In this document: positions 37,930-38,190 of the stretch, piece after piece
Layout: each line of letters starts with the position of its first letter
Numbering within the stretch: position 1 is the first letter of the stretch
Assembly: GCF_057098645.1 (NCBI RefSeq)
Contig: NZ_CM169472.1
Direction: 5' to 3' (one strand)
DNA length: 64,000 nucleotides
Notes under the pieces: model-generated
What the model saw: only the letters and a program-made list of their open reading frames with translations
Databases searched by the model: none
What the model was told of the DNA's origin: nothing
Translations under genes and position numbers: made by a program

Positions 37930-38190
37930 AAGGCATGTAACAGACCATTGACTGGGTGAATGGTCTGTCATACTTTGTTACCTGCAAAGGGGAGTAACTT
38001 CATTGCCGGTCGATCGTCATTACGATGTGTGAAAAATCACATCCGGTCACCGGGCAACCCGAAAGGAATACGCAGACGTATTCCTTTTTTGTTGTAAGTG
38101 AGACCTTGCCGGAAGGCGAGGTCTATGCATAAAAAGCAGCGGCTGACGTCTTCCGACGTTGGCCGTTTTTTTTATGTGTAAGGAACTTCT
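37930..38190 (+). ncRNA. sraF: alx 5' leader (SraF / pH-responsive element, yybP-ykoY-type riboswitch region)
   Basis: Long untranslated leader before alx; hairpin AGGAATACG-CAG-CGTATTCCT plus T6 at 38064-38094; assignment from known locus organisation. Confidence 0.5.

Follow-up and report, generated by a model that had tools for sequence, protein, structure and literature searches.

A terminator-like hairpin upstream of alx as an arm of the known PRE/SraF manganese riboswitch

Positions 37983 to 38190 of the window (the whole 64,000-nt stretch of DNA that was analysed) are, with little room for doubt, the 5′ UTR of alx and the known E. coli PRE/SraF element, a three-way-junction, Mn2+-binding riboswitch of the yybP-ykoY class that responds to alkaline pH. 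This element has reportedly been studied by Nechooshtan et al. (2009 and 2013), Dambach et al. (2015), Stephen & Mishanina (2022) and Stephen et al. (2025). A first-pass annotation had already read the region as the alx leader with its PRE/SraF riboswitch, and our results support that interpretation, with the element being previously known and ordinary. The annotation had also flagged a terminator-like hairpin in the leader. This hairpin is indeed a documented terminator, but it is aptamer helix P4 and not the regulated output of the riboswitch. We conclude that P4 has been selected as a helix, i.e., as a structural arm of the aptamer with a lineage-specific terminator property. The leader can serve as a positive control for a genome scan, being present and intact, and offers nothing new on riboswitch biology. 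Identity with the studied element, its anatomy, the two folds, covariation in P3 and P4 and the confinement of the U-tract to certain lineages come from the present analysis; the Mn2+ responses (PMC12153347, PMC10197570, PMC12934788), the pH responses and the termination efficiencies are taken from literature on the near-identical MG1655 sequence.

The spacer between ygjR and alx, two genes on the + strand, is 283 nt long (37908-38190). The upstream gene, ygjR, encodes a Gfo/Idh/MocA oxidoreductase and has its 3′ end at 37907. The product of the ORF starting at 38191 is named "TerC family membrane protein Alx" in RefSeq, and matched Pfam TerC (PF03741) at 181.8 bits. The features that delimit the transcript and its translation are as follows.

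37948-37976, + strand: candidate alx promoter, read by eye (TTGACT at 37948-37953, a TG, then CATACTTT at 37969-37976)
37983, + strand: transcript nt 1, the transcription start site (TSS) in the published PRE numbering, placed by a residue-name offset fit
38180-38184 and 38191-38193, + strand: ribosome-binding site (RBS) AAGGA and alx start codon ATG, the RBS region pairing with L1/P1.2 in the minimum free energy (MFE) fold
38191-39156, + strand: alx coding sequence, an ORF of 321 aa (TerC family)

The start of the transcript was fitted using residue names from three mechanistic papers (PMC3874183, PMC9472077, PMC12153347), namely A11, U35, C36, A37, C58, C73, A74, A114, U125, C127, A131, A132, G134, C135, A137, G138, A149-A153, C155 and A156. 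Setting nt 1 at 37983 accommodated 23 of the 23 names, versus 9 of 23 for the next best offset. The alx 5′ UTR is therefore 208 nt long (37983-38190), which corrects the figure of about 260 nt of untranslated leader given initially; positions 37930 to 37982 are promoter DNA outside the leader. The promoter itself was placed from its sequence and its distance to the published TSS numbering, and should be regarded as a candidate. A consensus promoter scan of 37700-38400 called no + strand promoter, as at most 8-9 of 12 positions match in the candidate and its spacing is non-standard.

Alignment with the MG1655 leader region, which the first-pass annotation had suggested as a check, gave 98% identity over 301 nt and identified the same element at the same ygjR-alx locus of E. 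coli K-12. Register is kept throughout, for the 23 named residues, hairpins A-D and S, the two terminators, the RBS and the start codon. This bears out the initial assignment to the pH- and Mn-responsive SraF/PRE element of the yybP-ykoY class, and the leader is intact, as had been proposed, in that it has kept all residues to which the mechanistic papers refer by name. Differences from MG1655 are limited to nt 55 in the P3.2 loop (U here versus A; C, A, U, G or absent in orthologues), the terminator-D tract (T8 here versus T7) and a few substitutions upstream of the promoter, and no residue of reported function is changed. The segment lies between ygjR and alx in 5,419 of 5,426 complete E. 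coli genomes.

The aptamer is made up of the following parts, the full element being given first.

37983-38111, + strand: Mn2+ aptamer with an alx-type three-way junction (nt 1-129), from the match to covariance model R1 (see below) and three-way-junction pairing
37989-37996, + strand: L1 5′ strand motif GGGGAGUA (nt 7-14, including A11), invariant in 68/68 orthologues and also found in mntP
38001-38004, + strand: L2 capping loop (nt 19-22, CAUU), standing in place of helix P2 in the four-way-junction relatives and named in PMC12934788
38005-38055, + strand: P3.1/L3/P3.2 arm (nt 23-73), with L3 (UCAUUAC) at 38017-38023, A37 at 38019 and the P3.2 hairpin at 38024-38043
38056-38093, + strand: P4, which is PRE hairpin B (nt 74-111), with base CAAC/GUUG and upper stem 38061-38088, from folding and covariation
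38094-38109, + strand: 3′ strand of P1.2/L1/P1.1, the switch strand GUAAGUGAGACCUUGC (nt 112-127), invariant in 68/68 orthologues

To place these parts in a wider context, 80 alx loci were fetched from other species, ranging from Escherichia to Serratia, Hafnia and Pantoea. The motif GGGGAGTA was present 172-307 nt upstream of the ATG in 74 of them, and 68 distinct aptamers were aligned (alignment A2). Invariant blocks comprised nt 2-18 (with L1), CGUCA..ACG (the L3 core), CCGGU and nt 112-129 (GUAAGUGAGACCUUGCCG). The L1 3′ strand, GAGACC at 38100-38105, was likewise invariant (68/68) and is a motif shared with mntP. L3 reads UCAUUAC in 55 of the 68 orthologues and is identical here to the published alx L3 (PMC12153347, PMC12934788), in which A37 is the Mn-coordinating adenosine (PMC12153347). 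When the published three-way-junction model was imposed on A2, 93.3% of cells were paired, compared to 31%-43% with the 3′ partners slid, although that percentage is inflated because the structure was derived from one aligned sequence. Compensatory counts are unaffected by this: 195 cells were changed on both sides, versus 57.5 ± 6.7 in shuffles, and compensatory changes were found across orthologues in both P3.1 and P3.2. The switch strand pairs with nt 2-18 in the aptamer, or lies inside P5 in the inactive fold. For P1.1, six canonical pairs are possible (nt 2-8 with 122-127), the same 3′ strand being used alternatively in P5. As all positions of P1.1 and P1.2 are invariant, covariation is uninformative for or against both helices.

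The four-way junction of the yybP-ykoY class (P1-P4, two coaxial legs) was not found here. Only 4 nt of variable sequence among orthologues (L2, 38001-38004) lie between L1/P1.2 and P3.1, where no hairpin can form, and the element is a three-way junction instead. An architecture of this kind is already known for the alx subtype (PMC12153347, PMC12934788), and identifies a subtype while being compatible with membership in the class. Other features of the class are present, including the 5′ and 3′ strands of L1, an L3 with a conserved adenosine, and a position in the 5′ UTR of a TerC-family Mn2+ homeostasis gene. Comparison with E. coli mntP, a yybP-ykoY riboswitch of known structure (PDB 4Y1M), illustrates both sides. 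The two share the L1 shell (GGGGAGUA...GAGACC) and a one-sided L3 bulge with a conserved adenosine, as well as a predicted P1.1 switch helix, translational control and a Mn exporter encoded downstream (PMC12153347). However, mntP has a P2 hairpin (four-way junction) where alx has the 4-nt L2 loop, and its L3 reads ACAUAC instead of UCAUUAC. Moreover, mntP has neither a terminator inside the aptamer nor a pH response, whereas alx has both.

This divergence affects detection by covariance models. RF00080 is described as the family of the alx leader, and its L1 consensus (UUGGGGAGUAGCC) is visible in the model. The first-pass annotation had proposed an Infernal scan with this model as its test, with a missing match counting against the riboswitch. 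In Rfam 15, RF00080 gave no match in the whole window at the gathering threshold, nor in 601 nt or the 141-nt aptamer at E ≤10. The controls behaved similarly, with no match for the validated MG1655 alx leader, and 41.6 bits with a partial alignment only for E. coli mntP (gathering cut-off of 45).

Window 37983-38111, L002 2374-2502 and L003 2462-2558: loci in the Rfam comparison, in which RF00080 left alx undetected and gave mntP 41.6 bits versus the cut-off of 45

Since the controls fail too, absence of a match is uninformative (a false negative for the alx subtype) and the proposed test is invalid. Its purpose was served by a covariance model of our own, R1, built from 66 non-Escherichia alx leaders with the three-way-junction structure. 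R1 matched the 64 kb window only once, over its full length (model positions 1-117 of 117), at 37983-38111 with 119.3 bits and E = 8e-32, and scored MG1655 identically. It did not match mntP with default filters. With filters off, it aligned mntP at the proper position, but the alignment covered just the outer shell (GGGGAGUA...GAGACC) and reached 5 bits. Hence, alx and mntP share the L1/P1.1 core and differ inside, so that neither model sees the other subtype and these models do not allow the two to be merged. The Rfam manganese model is thus unfit to confirm or refute alx-type leaders, and under-scores mntP as well, and RefSeq records carry no riboswitch feature at either the alx or the mntP locus. 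Rfam-based surveys may under-count the alx type in Enterobacterales. Given that UCAUUAC L3 occurs in 55/68 enterobacterial alx leaders, the reported distribution may partly reflect this detection gap.

Among weak Rfam matches to the aptamer alone, the best at full length was RF02617 "SSRC10" (Streptococcus sRNA 10) at 37980-38093, which was not significant (17.9 bits, E = 0.18). In the SSRC10 consensus, GGGAGUAG, CGUCAAUA and GAGAC precede a terminator, and the family has the appearance of a Mn2+ riboswitch from streptococci that was classified as an sRNA. Other weak matches (STnc370, RydC, isrK, several mir families and Spy392987) were dismissed as chance matches to generic terminator hairpins.

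Downstream of the aptamer, 80 nt separate its 3′ end from the alx start. Two hairpins of the published inactive conformer are found between the switch strand and the RBS, the first of them overlapping that strand.

38101-38124, + strand: P5, which is hairpin C of the inactive conformer (nt 119-142), −18.1 kcal/mol, z = −5.18
38138-38167 (hairpin) and 38166-38173 (U8), + strand: P6, which is hairpin D, and with the U8 tract forms termination site D, from the terminator scan, folding and conservation

Residues A131, A132, G134, C135 and A137 all map to P5. Hairpin D (13 pairs, 7 of them G-C, −20.4 kcal/mol, z = −5.05) lies directly before the alx RBS and is stronger than hairpin B. An anchored count with a strict rule found it, together with a T-rich tract, in 76 of 81 leaders, and inspection by eye extends this to nearly all of them. 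Site D yields the product of ~190 nt that corresponds to the SraF 3′ end, with in vitro termination of 13% at pH 7.2 versus 10% at pH 8.5, likewise persisting after an NTP chase (PMC9472077). The first-pass annotation overlooked this stronger, conserved terminator hairpin with its T8 (38138-38173).

The unconstrained MFE fold of nt 1-233 (−99.6 kcal/mol) corresponds to the published inactive conformer. P5 and P6 are both formed in it, and nt 198-200 and 203-208 (the RBS region) pair with nt 16-18 and 8-13 of L1/P1.2. When P1.1/P1.2 were enforced (−84.7 kcal/mol), P5 was lost, a C/D-type helix formed and the RBS was free of L1. The predicted folds thus include the inactive C/D fold with a paired RBS and the alternative RBS-free fold of an alx-type PRE. 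According to the thermodynamic model, the aptamer-on state lies 15 kcal/mol above the MFE. Going by the literature, switching must therefore draw on kinetics, Mn2+ and tertiary contacts.

The flagged hairpin was identical in both predicted conformers, and is therefore not a switching element. It had been placed at about 38064-38094 with a run of six T's, about 100 nt before the start codon, and both features were confirmed close to these positions. The stem spans 38061-38088, and the T-run ends 101 nt before the ATG at 38191.

38085-38090, + strand: U6 tract (nt 103-108), the published termination site B, from sequence and the terminator scan

The upper stem of hairpin B is A/U-rich (12 pairs, 4 of them G-C) and closed by a CAGA loop, and GTTG follows the T6. 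Folded alone, it reached −14.4 kcal/mol versus −3.8 ± 2.1 kcal/mol for dinucleotide shuffles (z = −4.97), with 0 of 200 shuffles as good. A terminator scan of 701 nt (37700-38400) returned two sites, B and D, compared to 0.8 ± 0.8 expected from shuffles, and both have the form of an intrinsic terminator, i.e., a stable stem-loop followed by a U-tract. Published nt 108 is window position 38090, the last T of T6. At this site, an RNA of ~108 nt is produced that persists after an NTP chase, and termination in vitro is enhanced by NusA and amounts to ~46% at pH 7.2 versus 43% at pH 8.5 (PMC9472077). A literature search for in vivo 3′ ends mapping to site B found none.

Across orthologues, it is the helix that is retained at P4, and not the U-tract. 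All 15 of its 15 pairs showed changes on both sides among the 68 orthologues, and when these were folded individually, P4 was a single unbranched hairpin, 10-61 nt long, in 67 of 68. A U-run of at least 5 was found at P4 in only 9/68 orthologues (at least 6 in 4/68), all from Escherichia and a few Citrobacter- or Enterobacter-like genomes. Retention of the U-tract, as expected under selected termination, was hence not seen at P4 (9/68), unlike at D (76/81). In Escherichia, the 3′ strand of P4 is a U-run, which lets the helix double as an intrinsic terminator. That so few lineages have the U-tract at site B, compared to the near-universal tract at D, argues that site B lies outside the core mechanism.

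These results bear on whether the hairpin and T6 could be the expression platform of the riboswitch, that is, a ligand-controlled attenuator at which Mn2+ or alkaline pH suppresses termination. Hairpin B looks like an intrinsic terminator and behaves as one in vitro (PMC9472077), other members of the class regulate by termination (PMC6649816), and metal-ion sampling by L3 sets in while the aptamer is still unfinished (PMC12153347). Transcriptional yybP-ykoY riboswitches (L. lactis yoaB, B. subtilis yybP/ykoY and S. pneumoniae mgtA) share the aptamer class and also have a terminator hairpin in the leader. In those switches, however, the terminator comes after the aptamer, where it competes with P1.1, such that Mn2+ controls read-through. 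In alx, hairpin B is an internal arm that precedes the L1/P1.1 3′ strand (nt 112-127), so that it is transcribed before the pocket closes, and it has no alternative pairing partner in either conformer. Moreover, termination at site B is essentially constant between the two pH values (PMC9472077), the 59 of 68 orthologues without the U-tract keep the rest of the switch, and published alx regulation is mainly translational (68-fold for a translational reporter, PMC10197570). A ligand-controlled attenuator at this position is accordingly very unlikely.

A second possibility is that the hairpin is primarily the terminator of ygjR and is situated in the alx leader incidentally. The gene is on the same strand and ends at 37907, and read-through from it would meet site B first, as only B and D were called within 37700-38400. 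However, the hairpin is located 154 nt beyond the stop of ygjR, with the alx promoter and TSS upstream of it, and it covaries as an integral helix of the aptamer. Where the U-tract is missing at P4, orthologues keep ygjR-type neighbours and rely on D. Termination of ygjR would be at most a secondary benefit, and would leave the existence of the helix unexplained; as the primary role of the hairpin, we consider it highly improbable. Site B may also halt ygjR read-through, because there is no other terminator-like site between the ygjR stop and hairpin B.

The hairpin could also be the terminator of a stand-alone, trans-acting sRNA, either SraF or the 108-nt species ending at B. SraF was originally listed among sRNAs, with a length of ~190 nt (cited in PMC9472077), and terminated products of 108 and 190 nt accumulate in vitro (PMC9472077). 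SraF has since been re-interpreted as the 5′ UTR of alx, co-transcribed with the gene (PMC6735904; PMC9472077), and has no known target or function in trans. The constraints on the sequence (invariant L1, L3 and switch strand, and pairing with the RBS) are those of a cis-acting switch. An independent sRNA is thus exceedingly unlikely.

We therefore return to the cis-acting PRE riboswitch with P4 as a structural arm, of which the three-way-junction aptamer, the P5/P6 platform and A37 have been described (PMC12153347, PMC12934788). In the proposed mechanism, L1 (GGGGAGUA...GAGACC) and L3 (UCAUUAC, with A37) would dock and bind Mn2+, and binding would stabilize P1.1/P1.2, joining the 5′ end to nt 112-127. 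Without ligand, hairpin C/P5 would capture the 3′ strand of P1.1/L1 and hairpin D/P6 would form; the freed 5′ strand of L1 could then pair with the RBS region, blocking translation. In the presence of Mn2+, with greater sensitivity at alkaline pH, P1.1 would hold, the alternative C/D helix would form and the RBS would be free. P4 would be a peripheral arm in both states, while site B would take out a large share of transcripts ahead of aptamer completion, with essentially no dependence on pH.

We infer that site B in Escherichia is, owing to the A-rich/U-rich base of P4, a constitutive attenuator, which is auxiliary or incidental to the sensing logic. Such a role is consistent with a remark on the ΔPRE transcriptional reporter, the raised output of which was attributed mainly to loss of the two PRE terminators (PMC10197570). 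A more far-reaching idea is that site B is a recent addition in the Escherichia/Citrobacter lineage, making the passive P4 arm a second control layer, i.e., a NusA-sensitive attenuator within an unfinished aptamer. We regard this as unlikely. If true, termination efficiency could depend on early sampling of metal by L3 or on the folding kinetics of P4. Transcription would then come under Mn2+ control while the pocket is still unfinished, or the 108-nt half-aptamer RNA might itself have some function.

Several relatives carry leaders with altered architecture. In Escherichia albertii NBRC 107761 (L004, 880-1090), an insertion of ~180 nt breaks the alx aptamer within P4. The inserted sequence is presumably REP-like (GCCTGATGCG...CATCCGGC) and is flanked by two copies of hairpin B, one diverged and one intact with T6; R1 splits this locus into two matches of 61.9 and 24.9 bits. 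Long insertions were also observed at P4 in Siccibacter colletis (L015) and Enterobacter pulveris (L034); the one in Phytobacter diazotrophicus (L027) separates hairpin D from the RBS. We take these three to resemble ERIC/IRU repeats (…GAATCCCCAGGAGCTTACA…AGTAAGTGACTGGGGTGA…). P4 seems to be a tolerated insertion site. The leader of Erwinia persicina (L048) is expanded. In Atlantibacter sp. RC6 (L025, 1091-1116), a deletion has removed most of the aptamer, leaving the L1 5′ strand joined almost directly to the P5 region. Rouxiella aceris (L076) has no recognizable aptamer, although hairpin D and its T-tract still precede alx. The latter two are natural "aptamer-less" alx leaders.

Two further features of the window were recorded outside the leader. 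The spacer between alx and sstT is 555 nt long here versus 398 nt in MG1655. Its first ~360 nt (39157-39520) are unrelated to the corresponding ~210 nt of MG1655 and constitute a strain-specific replacement by a G+C-rich segment, whereas the ~190 nt adjoining sstT are near-identical. At 12204-12279 there is a single tRNA gene (anticodon CAT; Rfam, 73.1 bits), which ARAGORN called tRNA-Met; judging from the E. coli map, we presume that it may be ileX (tRNA-Ile2).
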